The notes: generated from the sequence alone by a model not told the origin. Shown: positions 1-11,463, counted from the stretch's first letter. The stretch: 64,000 nucleotides of DNA from Chloroflexota bacterium (GCA_009838965.1 VXQP01000081.1:7854-71853); one strand, 5' to 3'. A program made the numbers and translations.

Positions 1-245
1 CCACCACAGCAAAAGGCGATACTCGTGTATACCGCGGGGATCGCCAACCCGATAATCACCCAGATGCGGCGATTCAGGCGCAATGCCCTTGAGGCCACTA
101 CGCGGTCGGGTGTCACCGGGATGTCCTCGCTGCCCAGTATCTTCTGCTCTTGGCGCCCACAGCCGCCGAGCGGGGAGGACAAGCGGACGTGCGGTCGAGT
201 ACCATGAGCGAGGATGCCATGATTTCGGCGGCAGCCACTATCCAC
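1..245 (-). CDS. Possible 5' part of a membrane-protein gene running off the left edge (very tentative)
   Basis: The minus-strand frame stays open to the window edge. Its translation ends ...RALRLNRRIWVIIGLAIPAVYTSIAFCCGG, a basic stretch followed by a TM-like helix. The start is uncertain (GTG 245, GTG 263 or TTG 182). It is absent from the ORF track because there is no stop inside the window. Confidence 0.2.
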   Translation of the reverse strand, partial: MDSGCRRNHGILAHGTRPHVRLSSPLGGCGRQEQKILGSEDIPVTPDRVVASRALRLNRRIWVIIGLAIPAVYTSIAFCCG

Positions 246-335
246 CGGCTGGCAGTGATCCACCCGGAACGTTAGTGACTTCAACCAGCTTGGCGTTGAG
301 TTGGAGAATCCCTTCGAACTCCAGGAGACCGAAGC

Positions 336-1193
336 ATGCAGTCACACGGGCAAGACCCATCGGTAACTGTAATGGACAACCTGATACAGAGTGCCGGACA
401 ACCGGATAGCAGGCCGTTCCGGGAGCGCGCTCGCATGATCGGTGCTGTGTATACGATTTCGTATACAGAGGCCATAGTCGCCGTATACGACTACGATAGG
501 GAGCAAGCTGGTGGCCTGCCCAAGAGCACGTTTCTTATGGCAGCAAAGCCCGAAGGAGACGAATCATTTGTATTGCTCAGAATACAGAAGGAGGCCCGGC
601 TTCCATCAGCTGCGGCCAACGACCAGACAAGGCAAGAGACTATCGAGGACTCAGGTAATCAGGGACACTGGTCGGATAGGCTGCCCGATTGGGTAAGAGA
701 CAAGATGTCTTTGCATGGATTGGAATGCTCGGTGCTGGGTACTTTCGTAGCTGAATCCAACGGCCGTTACCGATATGCCGAGGATATCGACAACTACTAC
801 GCTGTCAATCAGCTGATGGTGTGGAAACCAGATGCTGTATCGCTGGACGTGATAGTGAATCACCAACACCGCACCAACGACATACCGGTCGCCCGCAAGG
901 CTGCCAAAATAGGCCGCACTAGGTTTGCAGCAGCTGAACCGTCTAATGCAACCAAGGCGGACTTCAGGATCAACCCAACGGACATCATGAAGAGGCGGAC
1001 TGCATACTTTGGCATGTCACGTTCCGGCAAGTCCAATGGCCTCAAGATCGTAGCGGAAAACATCTACCGGATACGAGACGACAATCCAGCTCATCGAGTC
1101 GGGCAGATCATATTCGACCTAAGCGGCGAGTATGCTCAGGACAATTATCAAGACGGTAAGGGGCTACACCGGGTACACGAGACGCTGGGCTGA
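336..1193 (+). CDS. HerA/FtsK-superfamily (DUF87-like) ATPase, N-terminal piece (barrel-like N-terminus plus Walker A), ended by an in-frame TGA
   Basis: AGGAGA RBS 7 nt upstream of the ATG. IGAVYTISYTEAIVAVYDYD beta-rich N-terminus. Walker A is FGMSRSGKSN. Same reading frame as ORF 1257..2522. Confidence 0.75.
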   Translation: MQSHGQDPSVTVMDNLIQSAGQPDSRPFRERARMIGAVYTISYTEAIVAVYDYDREQAGGLPKSTFLMAAKPEGDESFVLLRIQKEARLPSAAANDQTRQETIEDSGNQGHWSDRLPDWVRDKMSLHGLECSVLGTFVAESNGRYRYAEDIDNYYAVNQLMVWKPDAVSLDVIVNHQHRTNDIPVARKAAKIGRTRFAAAEPSNATKADFRINPTDIMKRRTAYFGMSRSGKSNGLKIVAENIYRIRDDNPAHRVGQIIFDLSGEYAQDNYQDGKGLHRVHETLG

Positions 1194-1256
1194 CCTAGGC
1201 AATCCGAAATAGCCACCTATGGGCTTATCCCCGTTCCATGGGACACTGACCGCAAA

Positions 1257-2522
1257 GTGATGAAGCTGAACTTCTTTGGAGACCCAGTTCCTCGATCGTG
1301 GCAAACACCGCAAGACACTGTTGCCGTTGAGCAAGCACTTGACCAGATGATAGCAGGCAAGGAAATCATTCGGGGTATCATGGCCAATGAGACAGCCCGC
1401 TACACGACCGCCTTCCGTGACGCTGATCTTGCAGTTGAGGCGAGTGCAGCCGGAAACAGAAGTGCCCAGACACGATACTATAGAGCCATCCTGGCATACC
1501 GGACTGCGCTTGCAGCGGCAGGTCTTCAGACGCCCAGTTGGCAACCCTCCATACAAGGACCTGGACAAAACCCTGTTTTCTCACAGGATCTAGTCACTGC
1601 ACTTAGACACAACGACAATGCCAGCAGTGATTACCAGACGGATTACATACAGGCAGCCGCAATCATCGAAAACTCGGTCAACAACCAGTTCAACATTAAT
1701 TGGGATCAGCTCATTGCACTTTTCTCGGCGTTAGCTCGGTTCGTCGATGACCGGAGAAGCCGATTCCCAAGGTTTGAACAGGACTACATCGCACAGAGCT
1801 CAACTCAAGAATCGTGGGCTGACCCCAGATTTCGCGCTCTCTTGCGCATTTTCGAATCCCGAAACGGACCTCGATCTTTTCAGACAGCCCAAGAGCAACA
1901 CGACCCTAGCACCACCAACGATTTTGCTGAAGCTGTTGTAGATGACCTCAGAAGTGGTAAGCTGGTCATCATCGACCAGTCCGCTGGAGACCCAGAGCAG
2001 AATTTGGCCGCTGCCGAACGGGTGATGTGGCGTATTTTCCGGTCTCAGCAAGAGAGATTCAGGAGCGTCTTGGTCAATTACGACCCAACCGCGCCTCCCG
2101 ACGAGGACACGGCAACCGAAGGCCACATCATTATCTACATCGAAGAAGCTCATAACCTGCTGCCCCGTGCCAACTCTCGCGACAACCTGACTACCGTATG
2201 GGCCAGGGCAGCAAAGGAAGGGAGTAAGCTCAACATTGGAATGGTACTGGCGACGCAAGCTCCCAGCTCGGTAATGCCGGAAATTCTTAGCGAGACGGAC
2301 AATTGGGTTCTGTCATATCTCAATTCCGCTTCCGAACGACGTGTAGTGGCCGACTACATGGATTTTGCTGACTTCGTAGAGCAGATTGGCAAAGTGAGCG
2401 AACAGGGGTTTGTGCGCATTAGAACCCTCTCACAAGCATACACAGTTCCAGTTCAGTTGGACCGATTCCAGCTCACTGATGCGTCTACTCAGCCCAATCA
2501 AAACGCCGACGGGCAACCCTAG
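1257..2522 (+). CDS. HerA/FtsK-superfamily ATPase, C-terminal piece (Walker B and downstream motifs); probably one gene with 336..1193
   Basis: GKLVIIDQS, Walker B IIIYIEEAHNLLP, GMVLATQAPSS and NWVLSYLNS motifs. No SD before GTG1257/ATG1260. In frame with the upstream piece. Confidence 0.75.
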   Translation: MMKLNFFGDPVPRSWQTPQDTVAVEQALDQMIAGKEIIRGIMANETARYTTAFRDADLAVEASAAGNRSAQTRYYRAILAYRTALAAAGLQTPSWQPSIQGPGQNPVFSQDLVTALRHNDNASSDYQTDYIQAAAIIENSVNNQFNINWDQLIALFSALARFVDDRRSRFPRFEQDYIAQSSTQESWADPRFRALLRIFESRNGPRSFQTAQEQHDPSTTNDFAEAVVDDLRSGKLVIIDQSAGDPEQNLAAAERVMWRIFRSQQERFRSVLVNYDPTAPPDEDTATEGHIIIYIEEAHNLLPRANSRDNLTTVWARAAKEGSKLNIGMVLATQAPSSVMPEILSETDNWVLSYLNSASERRVVADYMDFADFVEQIGKVSEQGFVRIRTLSQAYTVPVQLDRFQLTDASTQPNQNADGQP

Positions 2523-2548
2523 AGGCGTGTGGGTCGGTAGGAGAGGCA

Positions 2549-3862
2549 ATGCCATACGCAGATGAGAGGGCTGGGCTAGCAGCCATACAGGCGATAGCCG
2601 ATAGCGATGAATTCGAGGACTTCCGTGCTCGGCTACAACCTCCTAGGCTGAATGCAGTACTGGATCTTCCACCTTTTGCGCCGAACCCCGCTGGCAGATC
2701 GAGGACTCACCTAGTGGCTATAGATGGTTCCCAAGTGTACGACCATTTCCCTGGCAGCCTTCCGGACACCCAAGCCGGAGTAGTGTCGCTCGGCGTAGTG
2801 GTAATAAACTTGGGGAAATTGGCGTCCCTCCAGAAGTTACCTCAAAGTCGCTCGGTAGACCCAAGGGAATTAAGGAATACCGAAGATGGCCGAAGTTTGG
2901 GAGCACTATTGCCAGGCAGTAACGCTGGAACTGTGGACGGATTGAGCCCTAGGGACTGGTTCCGCCAACGCTTCAACGACATCTTGAACAACATTTCATT
3001 AGGTGGAGAAACATTTGCTGAAAGCCTCTACCACATTCTTGGTAGAGACCACGAAATCCGACGATGCCCTAACTCAAAGTGCAGTGCCCGAAATCTGGTG
3101 ATGCCTTCGCCAGGTAACCAGGGAACTTGCTCACTGTGCAATACAACAATCTTGACGACCGATGCTCTCAGAATCCATGAACAGTTCATAGAGAACCAGT
3201 CTGCGGTAGAGTGTCACATCAGAGTAATGCAGACTCTAGAAATGCTGGCTCTAGTTAATAGCTTGCGCCATTTGATGAAATCTGAGATGGGCTTAACGGC
3301 GATAACCAACACGGCGTTCGTCATGGACGGCCAACTCGCTGCCTTCGGAACAATCGCGGTCCTAGCTCAGGCTATCCGGAAGGAGCTGCAGGTCATCCAA
3401 AAAACCCTAGAGGAACGCCATCCAGACGCTCAGTTGCTTGTCATGTCCGGCGTTAAGAGCGGGCCTTTCGTGAACCACGCTGAAGAGCTAGATAGGGCTC
3501 CAGCACCAAACAAGAGAATTCCACTCAACCACTACTGGCTGCCCAACAACCAGTACATAAGAGACCACATCGTTGCTGGCCATTCTGATGATCCTGCGCC
3601 ATGGGGAGAGGTGACCCATTACGGGCGCCCCGTGATACTCAAGACTGGTAGTGGGCAACGCCTCGTACTAAACATTGCCCAGCCGGAGGTTGAACCGCCG
3701 CTCACCGACCGGGGGATACCTCATGTCCTCGGGGACGCAATCGGTACTGCCGAACCCTTGGGGTTAGGTACAGACCAGTTCCTTGCCTTGCGGAGGGCGC
3801 ACCGTTGGGCTGCAATCCCGCTAAAGACCGGCACAGACCTCATCCATAGCTTGGTAACATGA
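2549..3862 (+). CDS. NurA-like nuclease with an inserted Cys4 zinc ribbon
   Basis: THLVAIDGSQ near the N-terminus, AFVMDGQLAAFG and MSGVKSGPF motifs. CPNSKC...CSLC. AGGAGAGG RBS. Directly follows the HerA-like gene, the canonical herA-nurA order. Confidence 0.65.
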   Translation: MPYADERAGLAAIQAIADSDEFEDFRARLQPPRLNAVLDLPPFAPNPAGRSRTHLVAIDGSQVYDHFPGSLPDTQAGVVSLGVVVINLGKLASLQKLPQSRSVDPRELRNTEDGRSLGALLPGSNAGTVDGLSPRDWFRQRFNDILNNISLGGETFAESLYHILGRDHEIRRCPNSKCSARNLVMPSPGNQGTCSLCNTTILTTDALRIHEQFIENQSAVECHIRVMQTLEMLALVNSLRHLMKSEMGLTAITNTAFVMDGQLAAFGTIAVLAQAIRKELQVIQKTLEERHPDAQLLVMSGVKSGPFVNHAEELDRAPAPNKRIPLNHYWLPNNQYIRDHIVAGHSDDPAPWGEVTHYGRPVILKTGSGQRLVLNIAQPEVEPPLTDRGIPHVLGDAIGTAEPLGLGTDQFLALRRAHRWAAIPLKTGTDLIHSLVT

Positions 3863-5016
3863 AGGCCAAGCCACAGGTGGAATCCGTGAGCACAAGCATT
3901 TGGCATCGCAATACAGCTGCCGGGCGGTGGTACGGATTCGGTCGCTACTATGCGATGTTCCCCCAGCGTTTTGTCCACGACGCGATCCTTAATCTCACGA
4001 GGGCGGAGGAAACCATCCTCGACCCGTTCTGTGGCCGAGGCAACGGACCCTTCGCTGCGACCGTGCTAGGTCGAGGCGCCCTCGGGATAGATGTCAATCC
4101 CATTGCGTGGTTGTTCGCGGCAGCCAAACTGCAGCCCGCAGGGACTCCTGAACAGGTCATGGCTAGACTGGCCGAAATCGCTAAGGCGCGTCGTCCTAAC
4201 GACCGGCGGAGCCGCAGCCGGTTTGAAGCAATGGCTTGGGCTCCTGCGGTAAGAGCACTGTTGAAGGCGGCGCGTCGGGAACTTGATTGGCGAGATTCGA
4301 CCGTGGATCGAACTCTAATGGCATTCCTTACGTTGCATATGCAGGACAAGCAGGGCTGTGGTTTATCGAATGTTATGTCCCCTACTATCGCCTTTTCACC
4401 CACGTACGCTGTGAAATGGTGGACGAAAAAGGGGTTACTTCAACCACCGGATATAGATCCAGTTGCAATGCTGGAAGACAAGATCTATCGTCGCTACGAG
4501 CGAGGTATCCCGGCACAGGCTTCCGGAACAGTGTTGCTAGGTGATTCTCGCCAAGAACTCCCCCAGCGGATCCGCGTTGATGCCGCGCTGTTGGTCACAT
4601 CGCCACCTTACTGTGGTGTCACCGACTACTGGAATGACCATTGGATCAGGCTGTGGATGCTTGGATTTCCATTCCAGAAGAATTGGAAGAGATCGGCACG
4701 CTTTAACAACAACAAGGAGTACCAAGAACTGATCACTTCTGTCTTTCAGGAGTCCAAGAAGCACCTGAAGAAGGGAGCCGCGATTCTTATTCGAAGTGAC
4801 CAGCGCCGAAGCACTGCGGAAATGTGTATGGCGGCCATGAGGGAGGTGTGGCCTCGGAAGAAACTCCTGATCCGAAGCACTACGGCCCCTCATGCGGGAA
4901 TCTCGAACAACCACGGGCGTGGTGGGCGTAAGGCCAAGGAGATTGACCTATTGATGCCGGGCAGTAGAGCTGTCGCGTGGTGGCAAAGCCAAGGATTCAC
5001 TCCATCTGCAGCGTAG
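3859..5016 (+). CDS. DNA methyltransferase (N6-adenine/N4-cytosine type, AdoMet motif before catalytic SPPY)
   Basis: MFPQRFVHDAILNLTRAEETILDPFCGRGNG (motifs X and I) and LLVTSPPYCGVTDYW (motif IV). Its ATG overlaps the upstream stop (ATGA). Confidence 0.8.
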   Translation: MKAKPQVESVSTSIWHRNTAAGRWYGFGRYYAMFPQRFVHDAILNLTRAEETILDPFCGRGNGPFAATVLGRGALGIDVNPIAWLFAAAKLQPAGTPEQVMARLAEIAKARRPNDRRSRSRFEAMAWAPAVRALLKAARRELDWRDSTVDRTLMAFLTLHMQDKQGCGLSNVMSPTIAFSPTYAVKWWTKKGLLQPPDIDPVAMLEDKIYRRYERGIPAQASGTVLLGDSRQELPQRIRVDAALLVTSPPYCGVTDYWNDHWIRLWMLGFPFQKNWKRSARFNNNKEYQELITSVFQESKKHLKKGAAILIRSDQRRSTAEMCMAAMREVWPRKKLLIRSTTAPHAGISNNHGRGGRKAKEIDLLMPGSRAVAWWQSQGFTPSAA

Positions 5017-5372
5017 CTGGTCCTTGAGCGACTCGAACGCGGCCACCGACAGCGTGAATCTGAGGGTGAAAGTTCCTTGGCTTCGTCAAGCGTGTTGGGC
5101 CTCGACGCACTTCGGGCAGATGCGGAGCAAGGTCAAAGCCTGCAGGGCGAGGGCGGAGTTCAATGCCCTGTTGTGCGTGGGCGCTAGTGCGAGCCTCCCG
5201 CTGACGTGGTACAGAGCAGGGCACTTCGCACCCTACAGCGCTACCTCCCACTGGAAAGTTCGCAACACGGTAGCCTCAGGTTCACCATGGACGGGGCAAA
5301 GGAGGCTGGCGCAGATTCCCCGGATTAGTGACACGCGCCCGTTTCGCGGTTGCTCGTCCGGGCGGTACGCTG

Positions 5373-5554
5373 GTCGCATAACTGTCGTACTGGCATCAGA
5401 GTCCGGCCGTGGCGAAAGCGACAGAATGCGACAGTTGTCAGAAACACCCGGTCGCCGTCGCTCTTGGCGGCCTCCGCTCTAGGAGTGGAGAGGCTGTCGC
5501 ATAAGTGTCGCTTTGTGTCGTATCCGCGGTGTGCGGTGTCGCATTTCCGTCGCG
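5373..5554. repeat. Cluster of TGTCGCAT-N2-4-YGTCG motifs (direct and inverted copies) in a convergent intergenic region
   Basis: Plus-strand copies at 5373-5389, 5494-5520 and 5537-5553. Minus-strand copy at 5415-5434. Degenerate copies at 5451-5461 and 5567-5577. Confidence 0.6.
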
Positions 5555-5577
5555 CGATGCTGCGCGGGTGTCGCGCC

Positions 5578-6744
5578 CTACGTCTCGCGTTCGTTGGTGA
5601 CGCTGGCGTCGCCGGTGCAGTAGGGGATGAAGTTCTTCATGTGGCAGATCGCGCCGGTCTTGGCGAGTTCGGCCTCGAAGAGGTCGTGTATCTCGCGGGC
5701 CTCGTCCTCGTACTCGATCTGCCTGCCGCCGGACTTCATGCTGACGTCCGCGCCGGGGCGGGAGCCCCCGTAGGGCGGGACGAGGCCGTGCTCGCCCTGC
5801 CGCAGTGCGAGGTAACGCGCCCGCTTCGTGCCTGCGTTGAAGTGCTGGTGGAACGTCCGCTCGCTGGGGACGACGACCATGGAGCCCTTCTTCCAGTCCA
5901 CCTTCCGCATGTCGGAGCGGTCGTCCTCGTTCCAGAGGAGGGAGAAGCCAGCGTCGCCGCTGAGGATGATGAGGTGCGCGCCGGGGCCGTGGTGGTGTGC
6001 CTTCTTGTAGGTGCCGACGGGGAACTCGGAGATGTGCGCGGTGATGCTGTTCTTGGCCATCTCCAACTGCGCGTTGATGCCGCCCGCGCCGCGCAATGGC
6101 ATACCGTAGAGCGGCATGTTGTCGGCGTTGGGGATGAAGTTGGACTCCCAGACGCGCCCGTTGTAGAGCTTGCCGCTGCCGTTGTAGGAGTCGTCCGCGT
6201 AGCGGTTGGAGAAGACGTACGGCAGGTTGAAGATGAAGTGGTTGTCGCGGTAGAGGCGCATGATGGGCGGCGCGCTGGTGACGGCGATGTAGCGCGCAGG
6301 TTCGGCGCCGGAGCCGTTGAAGAGCTGGTACCAGGCGTTCAGCGGGATGGCGAAGACGCTGCCCGCCTTCCACTCGAACGTCTGCTTGCGGCTCTCGTCC
6401 ACCCAGATGCTCGTCGCGCCCCTGCCGGAGAGGACGTACATCTGCGTCTCGTACATGTGGTGGACGGGCTCCGACTTGCCGCCGGGCGCGATCTCAACGA
6501 CGTGGGCGTCGTTCGGCAGCAGGCGGTTCGGGATGTTGATGATGGCGCCGCTGCCGCCCTTCGGCTCCCACGGCGAGAGTTCGAGCGCGTTGAGGTTCTC
6601 GAAGGCGTATTCGACGATGAGCGGCACGCCCTGTTCGCGAACCCACGCCATGTACGGGTCGTCGACCTCGAAGTCGCCGAGAGGTTCCGCGGGCTCCGCA
6701 GCCCGGAGCATCCGACTGTCCTGCGTGCCTGCGCTGGTGGCCAT
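5578..6744 (-). CDS. Bicupin (two cupin domains) protein, dioxygenase/isomerase-like, function unknown
   Basis: Two cupin-like halves (VHHMYETQMYVLSGRG..., KKAHHHGPGAHLIILSGDAGFS). GAAGGAG RBS before ATG 6744. The longer ORF start at 6816 is judged spurious. Confidence 0.7.
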   Translation of the reverse strand: MATSAGTQDSRMLRAAEPAEPLGDFEVDDPYMAWVREQGVPLIVEYAFENLNALELSPWEPKGGSGAIINIPNRLLPNDAHVVEIAPGGKSEPVHHMYETQMYVLSGRGATSIWVDESRKQTFEWKAGSVFAIPLNAWYQLFNGSGAEPARYIAVTSAPPIMRLYRDNHFIFNLPYVFSNRYADDSYNGSGKLYNGRVWESNFIPNADNMPLYGMPLRGAGGINAQLEMAKNSITAHISEFPVGTYKKAHHHGPGAHLIILSGDAGFSLLWNEDDRSDMRKVDWKKGSMVVVPSERTFHQHFNAGTKRARYLALRQGEHGLVPPYGGSRPGADVSMKSGGRQIEYEDEAREIHDLFEAELAKTGAICHMKNFIPYCTGDASVTNERET

Positions 6745-6772
6745 GGCGTTGCTCCTTCTGCTCTGAAAGTGA

Positions 6773-6800
6773 AAGGGCGGGAGCACCAGCCCCCGCCCTT
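6773..6800 (-). terminator. Hairpin between the two bicupin genes
   Basis: AAGGGCGGG (6773-6781) pairs with CCCGCCCTT (6792-6800). On the minus strand it is followed by TCACTTTC and then the RBS of the downstream gene. Confidence 0.45.
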
Positions 6801-6805
6801 CGCTG

Positions 6806-6858
6806 TTTACCCTCACCCGCCGCCGCTGCGCGGCGACCTCTCCTCTCTAGGGAGAGGT
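6806..6858. repeat. REP-like GC-rich element, copy A
   Basis: ACCCTCACCCGCCGCCGCTGCGCGGCGACC followed by the hairpin CCTCTCC-7nt-GGAGAGG. Related copies lie at 26921-26967 and 29690-29763. Confidence 0.6.
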
Positions 6859-6861
6859 GTA

Positions 6862-8016
6862 TTACGCCTGGCGCTCGCTGGTGACGCCGGCGTACCACTC
6901 ACAGTGGGAGAGGAAAGAATCCATCTTGCACTCCGCGCCGGACTTGGCAAGTTCGTCAAGGAAGAGCGCGTGAATCTCAGGGGCCTGGTCCTCGTACTCC
7001 ACCTGGATGCCGCCCTCCTTGATGCTGACGTCGGCGGTGGCGCGCTGGTTGGGTGCGTAGAAGCCGCCGTTGCCGCCGCGCAGCGCCATGTAGCGGGCAC
7101 GCGTCGTGCCGGAGTTGAAGTGCTGGTGGTAGGTGCCGTCGCCGGGAACGATGACGATGGTGCCGATCTGCCAGTCGCACTTCACCATGTCCGAACGGTC
7201 TTCCTTCGTCCAAAGGAGGGAGTACCCGGCGTCGCCGCTGAGGAGGAAGAGGTGCGCGCCGGGGCCGTGGCGGTGGGCCTTCTTGTAGGTGCCGACGGGG
7301 AACTCGGAGATGTGGTTGCCCATGTCGTTCTGGCCCATCTGCAGCATGGCGTTGATGCCGCCGGCGCCGCGCTCCTTCCAGCCGTAGAGCGCCATGTCCG
7401 GCGCGTTGGGGATGAAGTTGGTCTCCCAGATGCGCTTGTTGTAGAGCTTGCCATTGCCGGAGAACCAGGACTCGTCGTCCGAGTAGCGGCTACGGAACAT
7501 GAAGTCGTTGTTGAACATGAAGTCGGTGTCGCGGAAGAGGCGCATCATGGGCGGAGCGTTGGTCGTCGCCATGTAGCGCACCTTCTCGTCGCCGGAACCG
7601 TTGAAGTGCTGGTACCAGGCGTTCAGGGGGATGGTGAAGAGGGAGCCCGTCCTCCACTCGAAGGTCTGCTTGCTGTCCTCGTTCATCCAGACGGTCGTCG
7701 CGCCGCGCCCCTGAACGATGTAGAAGTTGATCTCGTACATGTGGTGCTCGGGCTCGGAGCGTCCGCCGGGCTTGATGTCGACCACGTGCAGGTCGTTCGG
7801 CATGTGGGCGTTGTCGATGTGGATGACTGCGCCCTCGCCGCCCTTGCGCTCCCACGGGCCGACCTCGACCTCGTGCCAGTTGGGGACGTAGTACGTCTTG
7901 TGGACCAGTACCTTCTCCTTCTCCAGCCAGTCCTCGTAGGCGTCGGGGATGCGGAAGTCCTCGAGCTGGCCGGTAGGCGTCTCCGCCACCTTCATGTCGG
8001 TGCCTTGCATAACCAT
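6862..8016 (-). CDS. Bicupin protein, tandem paralogue of 5578..6744
   Basis: Collinear similarity to the downstream bicupin along its full length. GGAGTGAGGTGA RBS 6 nt before the ATG. Confidence 0.7.
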   Translation of the reverse strand: MVMQGTDMKVAETPTGQLEDFRIPDAYEDWLEKEKVLVHKTYYVPNWHEVEVGPWERKGGEGAVIHIDNAHMPNDLHVVDIKPGGRSEPEHHMYEINFYIVQGRGATTVWMNEDSKQTFEWRTGSLFTIPLNAWYQHFNGSGDEKVRYMATTNAPPMMRLFRDTDFMFNNDFMFRSRYSDDESWFSGNGKLYNKRIWETNFIPNAPDMALYGWKERGAGGINAMLQMGQNDMGNHISEFPVGTYKKAHRHGPGAHLFLLSGDAGYSLLWTKEDRSDMVKCDWQIGTIVIVPGDGTYHQHFNSGTTRARYMALRGGNGGFYAPNQRATADVSIKEGGIQVEYEDQAPEIHALFLDELAKSGAECKMDSFLSHCEWYAGVTSERQA

Positions 8017-8082
8017 CAGGCGTCACCTCACTCCGTAAATGTGGGGCAAGCGTATCGCAATAACGCACCGCGCACAAATAGA

Positions 8083-8113
8083 AGGGGCAGGCAACTGGCT
8101 ATTGCCTGCCCCT
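8083..8113 (-). terminator. Intrinsic terminator-like hairpin after the amidohydrolase gene
   Basis: 12-bp stem AGGGGCAGGCAA / TTGCCTGCCCCT with a 7-nt loop. Followed on the minus strand by TTCTATTTGT. Confidence 0.6.
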
Positions 8114-8136
8114 GCAGTGCGAACGCTGCCGGAAGC

Positions 8137-9279
8137 CTAGACGGGAACGGGCGCCTCCACCTTGTAGAAGCGGGCGCAGTTGTCCCAGAGGATCTTGCGC
8201 TTCTCCTCGTCGGTGAGGTCCAGTTCGAGGAACGCCTTGACCGCGTTCGGGTAGCGCGAGTCGCCGTGGGGGTAGTCGGTCGAGAAGACGATCTGGTCGC
8301 TGCCGATGTAGTCGATGGCGTATTTTGCAGGGCCCTCGTCCGGCTCGATGGAGACCCAGCACTGGCGCTTGAAGAGCTCGATGGGGCTCTCGGACAGCTC
8401 CGGCATGTAGGCGTCGAGCTCGAGCTCGTGCATCTCCTCGATGCGCCAGAGGAGCCAGGGCAGCCAGGCGCAGTTGGCTTCCAGGAACGCGGCGCGGAGC
8501 TTGGGGTGCCGCTCCAGAACGCCGCCGCCGACGAAGCTGCCGAGGCCCATCATCTGCTCGAACGGCTGGGCGTAGACACGGCGCAGCATGAAGTTGTCGA
8601 AGTGCTCGCCGGCCTGCTTGGACATGGAGCCGGAGGCTTCGTGGAAGCCGATGGGCACGTCCAACTCCTCCAGCGTGTTCCATAGCGGCTCCATGTACGG
8701 GTCGTGCCAGTTCTTGCCGTTGACGACGTTCGAGCGGACGAAGACGGCCTTGAAGCCGAGCTCCTCCACGGCGCGCCGGGTCTCGGCGACGGCGTCGTTG
8801 ACGTCGTAGACGGAGATCATGCCCGCACCGAACATGCGGTTGGGGTCGACGGAGCAGAAGTCGTACATCCAGTCGTTGTAAGCGCGGGCGATGGCCGCGC
8901 CGAGGCCGGGGTCGATGTCGGGCCGGGTGAGGACGCTGAGGCCGCGGCTGGGGAACATGACGGCGACGTCGATGCCCTCGATATCCATCGCCTCGAGCTG
9001 GCAGTAGGAGTCCCACCCGCGCGAGGAGTGGTCCCTGTAGAGCACCTGGTTCTTCTCGTAGTTGTGCCCCTTGCGGTTGATGGTGGTTGCACCCGCGCCG
9101 GTGCCGTCGGCGATGCGTTCGAGGTCGGGCCAGCTGATGCGGAGGTCGCGCACGTTCTCCGAGGTGATGCCGACCGGCGCGGCGCTCTTGTAACGGTCGT
9201 CGATGTAGCGCTGCCAGAGGTCCGGCGGCTCCATGATGTGCATGTCGCTGTCGAAGATGAGGAAGCCATCCTTAGCCAT
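8137..9279 (-). CDS. Amidohydrolase-2 family (ACMSD-like metal-dependent hydrolase/decarboxylase)
   Basis: FDSDMHIMEP N-terminus, FHE, and STDYPHGD near the C-terminus. GAGGAGGA RBS. Confidence 0.8.
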   Translation of the reverse strand: MAKDGFLIFDSDMHIMEPPDLWQRYIDDRYKSAAPVGITSENVRDLRISWPDLERIADGTGAGATTINRKGHNYEKNQVLYRDHSSRGWDSYCQLEAMDIEGIDVAVMFPSRGLSVLTRPDIDPGLGAAIARAYNDWMYDFCSVDPNRMFGAGMISVYDVNDAVAETRRAVEELGFKAVFVRSNVVNGKNWHDPYMEPLWNTLEELDVPIGFHEASGSMSKQAGEHFDNFMLRRVYAQPFEQMMGLGSFVGGGVLERHPKLRAAFLEANCAWLPWLLWRIEEMHELELDAYMPELSESPIELFKRQCWVSIEPDEGPAKYAIDYIGSDQIVFSTDYPHGDSRYPNAVKAFLELDLTDEEKRKILWDNCARFYKVEAPVPV

Positions 9280-9335: not shown

Positions 9336-10637
9336 CTAACTCCTGTTGCTGGCGACCACCTCGTCGGCGTGGCTCGCCCAGGTGTCGAGCACGCCCTGGA
9401 TGTCGCTCTTGACCTCCTCGGTCTCGCCGGCCTGTGCCGTGAAGTAGACGGCTATCCGGCTCACTTCCTGCAGCGACGGCCAGCGCTCCAGCGGCAGTTC
9501 GATGCTGTTGTTCTTCCCGGGGTCGCGGATGACGTTCATCGGGTCGCCGCCGTCCTCTACGATCTTCATCTGCTCTGCCAGCTGCTTGCGGAGCAGGATG
9601 ATGCCGCGGTCGGACTCGCCGAGCTTCTCCTGGACGCGATCGGCGTTCGGGCCCTGGGTGATCCACGCGACGAAGTCCTGGTGGTTCACGAGGTCAGGGA
9701 TGAGTTTGCCGGACTCGTCGTAGATGGGGACGATGAAGTGCGGGATCTTCTCCTGCTTCGGGAGCGTGGTGCCCGGTGCGGCCTTGTAGAAGAACCAGGT
9801 GACGTGGAGCGTCGTGGTGTCGTCGATCGGCGTGCGGTACTGGAAGTTGCACTTCACGCCGTCGCCGACGAACAGGATGTTCGGGAAGAGGGCGGGGTGG
9901 CCGACCTTCCAGTCGTGGTCCTCCTTCGAGGTGCCCTCGACGACGCGGCGCTTGATGATGCCGTGCTCGAACTCGGTGAAGCCGATCTCCTTGTGGTTGC
10001 GCGGGATGATGGGGCTGAGGTCCGGCTCTCCACCCAGGGCGATGGCCTTCTCGCGCTGCTGCACGACGCCCCAGTAGCCGTGCAGCCACTCGAGGTGGAC
10101 AGGGTCGTGCGAGTTCTCCTGGCACTGGAGCCAGTTGCAGGGTAGTTCAGCGATGCCGATGTCCGAGTAGCCATTCTCGTAGGTGTACGGCTCCCACATC
10201 GGGATGAGCGGCGCGGGGGCAGGCCCCATGTACGCCCAGAGCATCCCCGCCATCTCCTGCACGGGGTAGCCCGCAACCTTCACCTTCTCCTTGAAGCGCC
10301 CGTCCGGGTGGACGGTCTCCTCGAAGGGCTGCTCGATGCACTGGCCGGTCTCGTCCATCATCCAGCCGTGGTACATGCAGCGGAGTCCGTGCTCCTCGGG
10401 GATGCCGTAGGAGAGGTCGACCCTGCGGTGGGGGCAGAACCGCTCGATGAGGCCGACAGTGCCGGACTTGTCGCGGTAGAGGACGAGGTCTTCGCCTAGC
10501 AGGCGCACCGGCTTGGTGGGGCGCTCGTCGAGTTCGGTCGCGGCCGCGAAGGGGTGCCAGTAGCGGCGCATGAGTTCGCCCCCGGGCGTGCCCGGGCCGA
10601 CCTGCGTTAGGCGTTCGTTGTCCTGTGCGGAAAGCAT
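9336..10637 (-). CDS. Rieske [2Fe-2S] non-heme-iron oxygenase alpha subunit (phthalate/KshA-like class)
   Basis: CPHRRVDLSYG...CMYHGW Rieske motif. NSHDPVHLEWLH iron motif. GGAGGA RBS. Confidence 0.9.
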   Translation of the reverse strand: MLSAQDNERLTQVGPGTPGGELMRRYWHPFAAATELDERPTKPVRLLGEDLVLYRDKSGTVGLIERFCPHRRVDLSYGIPEEHGLRCMYHGWMMDETGQCIEQPFEETVHPDGRFKEKVKVAGYPVQEMAGMLWAYMGPAPAPLIPMWEPYTYENGYSDIGIAELPCNWLQCQENSHDPVHLEWLHGYWGVVQQREKAIALGGEPDLSPIIPRNHKEIGFTEFEHGIIKRRVVEGTSKEDHDWKVGHPALFPNILFVGDGVKCNFQYRTPIDDTTTLHVTWFFYKAAPGTTLPKQEKIPHFIVPIYDESGKLIPDLVNHQDFVAWITQGPNADRVQEKLGESDRGIILLRKQLAEQMKIVEDGGDPMNVIRDPGKNNSIELPLERWPSLQEVSRIAVYFTAQAGETEEVKSDIQGVLDTWASHADEVVASNRS

Positions 10638-10690
10638 CCTTCATCCTCCCGATGCAGGCAGATTGGCGGGATTGTAGCACGGGCGGGCGC

Positions 10691-11110
10691 TTACGCACTC
10701 TGCCAGGGGTTAGTCACTTCGATGGGGAGATAGTCGAAATCGGCGACGTTGCGTGTGGCGAGCGAGAGGTCGTTCGCCGCGGCTATCCCGGCGATGAGCG
10801 CGTCGGCAATCCTGAGGCGTCGGCCGGATCGATGTGCTTCCGCGCGCAACCCGCCAGCATATTCCGCCGCTTCACCGTCCAGCGACAGAGTGCGCTCGCT
10901 GTACTCATCCAAGAACCCAGCCATTGCGGCTGCGATGGAGTTGCGCCGTCTCCCCTGCGGAAGAAGCTGTAACCCATACTCGATCTCATACAGTGCGATG
11001 ACAGGAACCCAGAGGTCATCCATCGTTTTGAGGAAGGTCACCACGTGCCTGTCCGGTGGGGTCTTGGCTAACTCCGAGATGACGTTGGTATCGAGCAGAT
11101 AGCCGCTCAT
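10691..11110 (-). CDS. vapC: PIN-domain toxin VapC
   Basis: LLDTNVISEL start and conserved acidic positions, about 139 aa. Its ATG overlaps the antitoxin stop (ATGA). Confidence 0.85.
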   Translation of the reverse strand: MSGYLLDTNVISELAKTPPDRHVVTFLKTMDDLWVPVIALYEIEYGLQLLPQGRRRNSIAAAMAGFLDEYSERTLSLDGEAAEYAGGLRAEAHRSGRRLRIADALIAGIAAANDLSLATRNVADFDYLPIEVTNPWQSA

Positions 11111-11421
11111 CGGTTGGCTTCGTCAGCGAAGGGAATCTCGCGGTCGTCATCATCACGGGAAGGGAGTTCCAGTTCAATGCCACGAGGGAAGTTCTCCACG
11201 AGCCACTGGCCGAGGGGTTTGCGCGGGTGTGCCCGCTCCTGCCAGACGCGCTCCGGCACAACGATGAACGCGCGTTGCACACCGATGCGCTGCGGGCCTT
11301 CCTCCTCGGCGAGGCGCAGGACCTCGGACAGCCGCGCCTTGGTGTCGGCGACCGTCCACGTGCGGGTGGGGTCGTTACGTTGAGGTGCGGTCCGTGTGGT
11401 CACAGTATTCCTCCTCATCAT
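11107..11421 (-). CDS. Phd/YefM-type antitoxin partner of VapC
   Basis: About 104 aa with WTVADTKARLSEVLRLAEEEGPQRI, typical of the Phd/YefM N-terminus. Lies directly upstream of vapC. Confidence 0.7.
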   Translation of the reverse strand: MMRRNTVTTRTAPQRNDPTRTWTVADTKARLSEVLRLAEEEGPQRIGVQRAFIVVPERVWQERAHPRKPLGQWLVENFPRGIELELPSRDDDDREIPFADEANR

Positions 11422-11431
11422 CTCCTGTCAG

Positions 11432-11463
11432 GACTAGTCTATATCATCCAGACCAGACTAGTC
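11432..11463 (-). promoter_or_regulatory. Twin palindromic operator candidates upstream of the antitoxin
   Basis: The GACTAGTC palindrome occurs twice (11432-11439 and 11456-11463), within the repeated GACTAGTCTATA, 24 bp apart. Confidence 0.5.

Follow-up and report, generated by a model that had tools for sequence, protein, structure and literature searches.

We analysed a 64,000-nucleotide stretch of DNA from a Chloroflexota bacterium (GCA_009838965.1 VXQP01000081.1:7854-71853; hereafter the window), whose first 5 kb carry a cassette of three genes for a putative HerA-family ATPase, a putative NurA-type nuclease and a putative DNA methyltransferase. This trio is a conserved unit and not a set of chance neighbours, since it recurs in the same order in more than 100 bacterial and archaeal loci, and the cassette was horizontally acquired. 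Because of the protein identities, the strict linkage and co-divergence of the genes, their horizontal acquisition and the defence-gene neighbours seen in several genomes, we lean slightly towards reading the trio as a self-contained mobile restriction-modification (R-M)-like module, which would be a methylation-linked variant of TdpAB-type restriction. It is the family that is of interest, and the window holds a decayed example of it. The original prediction, made from this DNA alone, had described three co-directional, packed genes with a series of motifs, and all of these are located where it had placed them (Table 1).

With each GTDB species represented by one genome, a scan yielded 29 genome loci, 27 of which carry ATPase, nuclease and methylase in the same order; of the two exceptions, one is interrupted by a contig end and the other lacks the ATPase. 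The loci come from metagenome-assembled genomes (MAGs) of Dehalococcoidia/SAR202, Caldilineaceae, Anaerolinea, Gamma- and Alphaproteobacteria, Pseudomonadales, Longimicrobiales and Binatia, and thus span Chloroflexota, Proteobacteria, Gemmatimonadota and Binatia. A metagenome scan seeded with distant members of the family confirmed 436 stretches, from which 80 loci were kept (the query P0245 is 24-34% identical to the nuclease of the locus), and the same order was found in every one that was sufficiently long. The haloarchaeal plasmid of Halorarius halobius also carries the trio, each protein being 26-27% identical to that of the window, and the Deferribacter megaplasmid pDF308 encodes all three families in the order methylase-ATPase-nuclease, with an ATPase split by IS200/IS605 tnpA and tnpB (L116 7306-9085). 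The proposal that the three genes would turn up as neighbours in unrelated genomes was thus borne out by the genome loci, the long-enough metagenome loci and the Halorarius plasmid alike. When the flanking open reading frames (ORFs) of the genome and metagenome sets were clustered, no fourth conserved gene emerged, and the partner of ATPase and nuclease is a PF01555 methylase here and in every related locus. The three proteins also diverge in step: across 72 complete trios, their pairwise-identity matrices correlate with r = 0.91-0.97, and with 0.69-0.80 for pairs whose ATPase identity is below 50%. The family is abundant in soil, in sediment and in MAGs from several phyla, and its distribution across phyla is patchy at 55-90% identity.

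The ATPase frame has the HerA layout and motifs that had been attributed to it, including a beta-rich N-terminal domain (of which IGAVYTISYTEAIVAVYDYD occupies amino acids (aa) 35-54) and a helical insert of about 215 aa; however, it is not a single open frame, a point that the original prediction had touched on only in proposing to clone the operon with the TGA repaired. A TGA at codon 286 divides it into ORFs at 336-1193 and 1257-2522, the frame's own stop being TAG. The window reads HETLG*PRQ (the asterisk being the stop) where intact 728-aa homologues, up to 92-93% identical, read HETL(S/G/N)LPRQ. We take the TGA to be a nonsense mutation, an assembly error being less likely. Programmed recoding was excluded: leucine occupies the site in homologues, the stops in the copies of other loci lie at different codons and are different triplets, and TGA also ends the nuclease gene. 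When codon 286 was read through, PF01935 (DUF87/HerA central domain) matched at 27.6 bits against a cutoff of 23.2, and this domain is present in most intact homologues. Twelve PADLOC models matched the protein, eleven of them HerA models (down to 1.7e-14) and the twelfth, weakly, mad8. The NCBIfam HerA equivalogs all remained below their cutoffs (25-53 bits against 800-970), with 25-40 bits against 800-970 for repair HerA and 31-53 against 800-850 for anti-phage HerA. A profile of 36 ATPase homologues searched against the PDB found TdpA as its best match (E 3.7e-16), followed by DUF4297-HerA, SIR2-HerA and archaeal repair HerA at 1e-8 to 1e-4. The AlphaFold model is of moderate quality (predicted local distance difference test, pLDDT, 66.5), and its template modelling (TM) scores in Foldseek were 0.27-0.48; TdpA chains came out on top and all 50 top matches were of the HerA family, anti-phage HerA structures among them. 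Membership of the HerA/FtsK superfamily is thus supported by sequence and by predicted fold, and the GMVLATQAPSS block sits at the position of the sensor motif, a role that would be assigned to it by analogy.

The nuclease gene, which starts 26 nucleotides (nt) past the ATPase TAG, encodes a protein with the motifs THLVAIDGSQ, AFVMDGQLAAFG and MSGVKSGPF. Profile matches had been expected for all three proteins; those of the ATPase to HerA/DUF87 and of the methylase to N6_N4_Mtase were obtained, but the window nuclease did not match NurA directly. It had no match in Pfam, NCBIfam or PADLOC at E up to 0.1, and phmmer of the single sequence against the PDB returned noise only. Its relatives fill this gap. 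The family comprises 561 clusters at 50% identity (E up to 0.001), PF09376 (NurA) is matched by 23 of 64 diverse members (best E 1.3e-25), and homologues at 59% identity have precomputed PF09376 matches; in PGAP annotation, distant relatives appear as 'DNA double-strand break repair nuclease NurA'. The family profile had TdpB as its sole significant match in the PDB (E 1e-4), in an alignment of three blocks containing D59, D260 and H418 (AIDGS/VDGGE, DGxLA/DGRLA and AH/AH) that leaves the zinc-ribbon region outside. The AlphaFold model (pLDDT 83.8) also placed TdpB at the top in Foldseek (E 1.7e-6, TM 0.55 target-normalised). All 12 matches with E <0.01 were TdpB or NurA, the NurA structures after TdpB being those of Thermococcus, Deinococcus, Pyrococcus and Sulfolobus, and the next two were the NurA-related TM1739. 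The distant family alignment shows no variation at D59, D205, D260, K303 and G305 and hardly any at E231 and H418, which makes the acidic and histidine residues candidates for catalysis; C173, C178 and C194 of the zinc ribbon are near-invariant in it, and all four cysteines are invariant among close homologues. The evidence for a NurA-type nuclease with a predicted RNase-H-like fold therefore comes from its modelled structure and its relatives, not from a Pfam match of the protein itself.

The third gene is supported as a DNA methyltransferase of the N6_N4 family by its matches to PF01555 (47.8 bits against a cutoff of 26.7) and to the PADLOC type II methyltransferase model (MTase_II, 5.8e-20). 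Its S-adenosylmethionine (AdoMet) motif lies ahead of TSPPY, an order permuted relative to the Pfam model. Motif I is conserved in the Halorarius and Deferribacter homologues, and motif IV is kept as VTSPPY or ITSPPY in distant ones. The SPPY motif suggests a product that we take to be N4-methylcytosine, N6-methyladenine being possible as well.

The base composition of the cassette differs from that of its surroundings. GC content is 0.53-0.56 across the first 5 kb versus about 0.65 over the other 59 kb, and GC at third codon positions (GC3) is 0.56-0.60 in all three genes versus 0.93-0.95 in the next three, in agreement with the third-position A/T richness noted earlier; the cassette is therefore foreign to this genome. 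We recovered the source contig as L003, on which the window position equals the L003 position minus 7452. The low-GC island extends at least 7.4 kb upstream of the window (L003 1-7452, GC 0.54-0.62), and as a whole it measures 12 kb or more; the trio occupies its edge, next to a type III-like R-M set that is already part of it. In this set, a res gene (ResIII helicase, 933 aa) and an N6_N4 methylase gene (920 aa) enclose a 138-aa PIN gene, and the GC content (about 0.58-0.62) lies between the trio and host values. The original prediction had stated that no restriction-endonuclease-like gene accompanies the methylase, which is correct inside the window but not on the contig, where the type III-like set, with a methylase of its own, comes directly upstream. 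The intergenic region shared with this set is presumed to be a promoter region; promoter and terminator scans of window 1-6000, a consensus promoter scan included, and an Rfam scan of it gave nothing informative.

The concept of such a module is already known, TdpABC and, on composition, an operon of Thermus being precedents. An et al. (Nat Chem Biol 2025) reportedly found that modification blocks translocation and cleavage by TdpAB on self DNA. TdpABC, from thermophiles, is a phosphorothioate (PT)-based R-M system in which tdpC alone makes the phosphorothioate (PMC12914056, PMC13223576). Like the trio, it combines a HerA-like hexameric ATPase (TdpA), a NurA-like nuclease (TdpB) and a single DNA-modification gene, and TdpA and TdpB (PDB 8wet, 8wfd and 8y1k) are the best solved-structure matches of the window ATPase and nuclease by profile and by fold. 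The two sets of proteins have in common EEAHN(L/F)L, (A/S)TQ(A/S)P, an MPYxxE N-terminus and the DG and AH nuclease blocks. However, the proteins resemble each other only distantly (structural alignments give 12-16% identity, and the nuclease profile E 1e-4), the window ATPase is about 140 aa longer than TdpA, and the window nuclease has a zinc-ribbon insert that does not align to TdpB. The modification genes also differ, TdpC forming PT whereas the window encodes a predicted amino-methyltransferase of the N6_N4 family. The TdpABC mark is on the backbone, whereas a base methyl would lie in the groove, so that its read-out cannot equal that of TdpABC. A TdpB N-terminal fragment used as a query for Thermus and Tdp loci retrieved nothing in a protein database search or in tblastn of plasmids.

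The second precedent is the operon of the integrative and conjugative element ICEth1 of Thermus thermophilus HB27, which comprises TthHB27I/Tth111II, the NurA-like TTC1878, TdtA (TTC1879) and the methylase TTC1880 (PMC5365140, PMC7767461). Compared by composition, it resembles the trio in having a NurA-family nuclease, a HerA/FtsK hexameric ATPase and a pfam01555 methylase of about 400 aa in one operon on a mobile element. Its order is NurA-ATPase-methylase, against ATPase-NurA-methylase in the window, and its transcript also includes a type IIG restriction enzyme gene, while an integrase lies nearby, neither of which is conserved with the trio in more than 100 loci. Neither a type IIG enzyme nor an ICE integrase was found in the window or in its upstream contig. 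The function assigned to the ICEth1 operon is DNA donation (transjugation) and not defence, and TdtA is reported to be membrane-associated (PMC5365140, PMC7767461).

Other known systems are similar in part. SIR2-HerA (Nezha/Gao19) and DUF4297-HerA also couple a HerA-family ATPase to an effector encoded by the adjacent gene, but their effector is SIR2 or DUF4297, whereas in the window it would be a NurA-fold nuclease with the methylase as an obligatory third gene. Classical R-M, BREX, DISARM and MADS systems link a methylase to ATP-dependent restriction, and in them, as in the trio, restriction genes decay while the methylase is retained; unlike R-M, BREX and DISARM, the trio has no PD-(D/E)xK, HNH or PLD endonuclease, HsdR/Res helicase, PglZ, BrxC or Drm in the module. 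MADS itself was rejected, the only partial match being that of the ATPase to mad8 (E 1.5e-11), with no other of mad1-mad8 in the module, and a literature comparison set aside MANTIS, the BREX-related capture system and the DndH 'HerA capture' systems, whose composition differs. In PADLOC-DB 2.0, nothing matches the nuclease and the trio is not defined as a system by any model; the ATPase is matched by HerA models. The earlier remark that no HerA-NurA-methyltransferase type had been described holds insofar as full-text literature searches found no named DUF87/HerA, NurA and methyltransferase defence system, but not insofar as TdpABC and the ICEth1 operon are comparable. Current pipelines label the genes 'DUF87 / hypothetical / DNA methyltransferase', or give the misleading 'DSB repair nuclease NurA'.

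In the methylation-linked module that we favour, the methyltransferase would mark host DNA, the HerA/TdpA-like ATPase would form a ring translocase threading DNA into the NurA/TdpB-like RNase-H-fold nuclease, and ATPase and nuclease together would degrade DNA that does not carry the mark, such as phage or plasmid DNA. The system would thereby parallel TdpABC, with base methylation replacing backbone phosphorothioation. That the proteins form a complex, that they degrade DNA, that methylation protects from them and that the module acts against phage are inferences. Candidates for sensing the methyl group are the zinc ribbon of the nuclease, the long helical insert of the ATPase and the methylase itself acting as a sequence reader. 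If the machine is gated by methylation, it would be a third kind of 'R' machinery in methylation-based immunity, a processive ring translocase with a NurA nuclease, and would join archaeal-type HerA-NurA end resection, phosphorothioate-based Tdp and Thermus transjugation, which have so far been treated separately. A wider reading, which we find possible but rather doubtful, is that the trio represents a widespread unnamed R-M class of Bacteria and Archaea in which the ring translocase and NurA nuclease replace the restriction endonuclease; on this view a single translocase-nuclease chassis would accept interchangeable modification genes, and the Thermus operon, the Deferribacter cassette and TdpABC would be sister versions of it.

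The family is frequently decayed. Lesions were seen in 12 copies, namely in this window, in 8 of the 29 genome loci and in 3 of the 80 metagenome loci, and they comprise insertion sequences (IS), nonsense codons, a frameshift and truncations or splits (Table 1). The ATPase or the nuclease is damaged in all 12. The methylase is damaged in three, each time along with the ATPase, and is never the sole broken gene, as would be expected if it protects against the ATPase and nuclease. Such a decay pattern is typical of R-M systems. In the window, the nonsense codon has probably inactivated the restriction half, which would leave the methylase to act as an orphan.

Several observations weigh against a methylation-linked restriction module. 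It is a mechanistic question how a ring translocase that tracks the backbone, or a NurA nuclease, would read a base methyl. The window ATPase, to judge from its frame, is a pseudogene in this assembly. The asymmetry of lesions has a probability of about 0.75^8 = 0.1 under length-proportional first hits, with n=8 evaluable single-target cases, and is only suggestive of a protective methylase. We looked for a hypervariable specificity segment in the methylase and found the stretch between motifs I and IV no more variable than the rest, whereas many R-M and BREX methylases have diversifying specificity domains. Nostocales plasmids carry XRE-ATPase-nuclease arrangements without a methylase (L034 4626-11329 in Tolypothrix and L035 3622-7302 in Calothrix), so that the pair is evidently viable without methylation. 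The setting in a defence island, which the original prediction had proposed, was met with in the three contexts that have precomputed Pfam annotation (L001, L002 and L003), all defence-rich, but it is not universal, as a flank census of 106 ORFs from 26 further loci gave a mixed picture with many metabolic genes. In ICEth1, finally, the ATPase and nuclease are needed for donation while loss of the methylase has minor effects (PMC5365140, PMC7767461).

This last point leads to the explanation that the trio is DNA-mobilisation machinery of a mobile element, in which the ATPase would pump and the nuclease process chromosomal DNA destined for other cells (transjugation), with the methylase as an accessory. 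Knock-outs of TdtA or of the NurA-like gene of ICEth1 abolish or strongly reduce donation (PMC5365140), and the trio is clearly horizontally mobile. However, no integrase, relaxase, type IIG or transfer gene is conserved with it in more than 100 loci, MmeI-like neighbours occur in L001 only, and the best solved-structure matches are the restriction proteins TdpA and TdpB; we regard mobilisation as quite unlikely. It is also unlikely that ATPase and nuclease form a methylation-independent defence or abortive-infection pair that senses infection or DNA ends in the manner of SIR2-HerA or DUF4297-HerA, with the methylase serving, for example, in epigenetic regulation of the operon, in anti-restriction of the cassette or as an antitoxin-like inhibitor. 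HerA-effector pairs without modification genes are established (PDB 8ziq, 8j4u and 8xau are among the matches), and both the methylase-less XRE variants and the absence of hypervariability in the middle of the methylase would suit such a pair. It fits less well with the retention of the methylase in essentially every locus of the family, in Bacteria and Archaea, where it co-diverges with its partners, with the ATGA translational coupling that joins it to the nuclease, and with the fact that it is never the only gene lost.

A housekeeping role in double-strand-break repair, with a functionally unrelated methylase next door, appears very improbable. In archaea and Deinococcus, end resection is carried out by HerA-NurA complexes (PMC9960219, PMC12977600) that have the same two folds and presumably work as a hexamer-dimer translocase-nuclease machine, and PDB 9x1m and 7f6d are among the nuclease matches; the PGAP name of distant relatives points the same way. 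Unlike those complexes, the window family is strictly linked to a methylase, has a zinc ribbon and places the ATPase gene before the nuclease gene. It is patchy across phyla, foreign in composition, pseudogenised or interrupted by IS in 8 of 29 genome loci and carried on plasmids, with a related ATPase-nuclease pair on prophages; no Mre11/Rad50 was present among the neighbours in the L001-L003 contexts and the flank census, and the scores of 25-40 bits are far from the 800-970 of the NCBIfam repair HerA equivalogs. As for an orphan methylase lying by chance beside an ATPase-nuclease pair, relatives of the methylase at 27-31% identity do turn up unaccompanied by the pair on plasmids of rhizobia and Allochromatium, but more than 100 independent loci, bacterial and archaeal, keep the order even where identity falls to 25-35%, which refutes chance adjacency and leaves it a negligible probability.

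Table 1. Positions of the features of the cassette, of its surroundings and of lesions in related copies (window numbering unless a locus is named).
Feature	Position	Strand	Remarks
Three co-directional, tightly packed genes	336-5016	+	Order ATPase, nuclease, DNA methyltransferase
Predicted HerA-family (TdpA-like) ATPase, 728 codons, one in-frame stop	336..2522	+	Profiles, fold
Walker A GMSRSGKS	1011..1034	+	aa 226-233; aligns to TdpA GKTGFGKS
In-frame TGA, codon 286	1191..1193	+	Leu in intact homologues (HETLxLPRQ)
Walker B region IIIYIEEAHNLLP	2127..2165	+	aa 598-610; aligns to TdpA VVLEEAHNFL
GMVLATQAPSS block	2238..2270	+	aa 635-645; TQ conserved, common to TdpA
Shine-Dalgarno-like AGGAGAGG	2539..2546	+	Ends 2 nt ahead of nuclease start codon
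Predicted NurA-fold (TdpB-like) nuclease, 437 aa, intact	2549..3862	+	
Four-cysteine zinc-ribbon-like insert CPNSKC-x15-CSLC	3065..3139	+	aa 173-197
Predicted DNA amino-methyltransferase (N6_N4_Mtase family), 385 aa, intact	3859..5016	+	
ATGA overlap of nuclease stop and methylase start	3859..3862	+	Translational coupling
AdoMet-binding motif I ILDPFCGRGNG	4015..4047	+	aa 53-63; within FP-x17-ILDPFCGRGNG
Catalytic motif IV LLVTSPPY	4588..4611	+	TSPPY at aa 247-251
Low-GC, low-GC3 stretch, right-hand part of horizontally acquired island	1..5050		GC, GC3
Part of ~590-nt intergenic region from ATPase gene to divergent methylase outside window	1..335		
Type III-like R-M set, divergent	L003 1199-7194		Directly upstream of window position 1
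IS630-like insertion in ATPase	L005 6446-7636		
IS5-like two-ORF insertion in nuclease	L032 7032-8001		
Nonsense codons	L014, L016		
Frameshift	L027		
Truncations or splits	L006, L019, L030, L042, L091, L095		

Among the defence-rich contexts, L001 (4444-21311 of a 2.9-Mb contig) has the trio between two MmeI_Mtase/Eco57I-type genes, followed by KTSC, AAA_21, SLFN/AlbA_2 and PglZ, so that by its gene content this cassette is embedded in a BREX-like locus. In L002 the trio lies beside a DUF1156 methylase, a pair of HATPase_c_3 and methylase genes, and transposases. The defence genes in the flank census were Tiamat TmtA, type I, II and III methylases, PtuA, PDC-M23B and HEC-01A. TmtA was assigned to four ORFs by PADLOC, and the same 1,120-aa family clusters in 5 of the 29 genome loci (E down to 5e-176). 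Its gene lies a few kb at most from the trio, and both side and orientation vary (L004 1829-5191, L009 10565-13933, L012 14241-17273, L018 805-4215 and L032 657-4079), a proximity that may reflect shared residence in islands.

In the methylase-less Tolypothrix variant, an 816-aa protein combining an RNase_T exonuclease with a STAND-like NTPase comes next. A scan of IMG/VR for close relatives returned none; the more sensitive tblastn against GenBank phages identified two Vibrio temperate phages with a related ATPase-nuclease pair. In Vibrio phage 10N.286.54.E5_PE002 (L117 1-6053; also PQ189371) the ATPase is present as two ORFs and is accompanied by a full-length nuclease relative (26% identity). 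The pair lies between int and xis and adjoins a convergent, non-homologous Dam-class (D12) methylase, which may have replaced the modification gene in a non-orthologous swap or may just be the Dam of the phage itself.

Beyond the cassette, the window carries two tandem paralogous cupin-domain genes on the minus strand (5578-6816 and 6862-8016), of 412 and 384 aa by ORF, the first being 388 aa as called on L003. The contig continues with a 428-aa gene without a Pfam match and with a gene for a Rieske oxygenase, and on the strand of the cupin genes (minus) there is an ORF of 380 aa at 8137-9279; the region looks like a host cluster for the catabolism of aromatic compounds. An antisense ORF of 1,111 aa at 5350-8685 was rejected as a high-GC artefact. 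ARAGORN called a 90-nt tRNA-Gly(GCC) at 9676-9765, which is probably a false positive because it lies inside the opposite-strand Rieske-domain gene (about 9371-10672, from the L003 gene table). A PIN-domain gene follows a 103-aa gene at about 10726-11453 (L003 18178-18905, minus strand), in the usual layout of VapBC-type toxin-antitoxin pairs.

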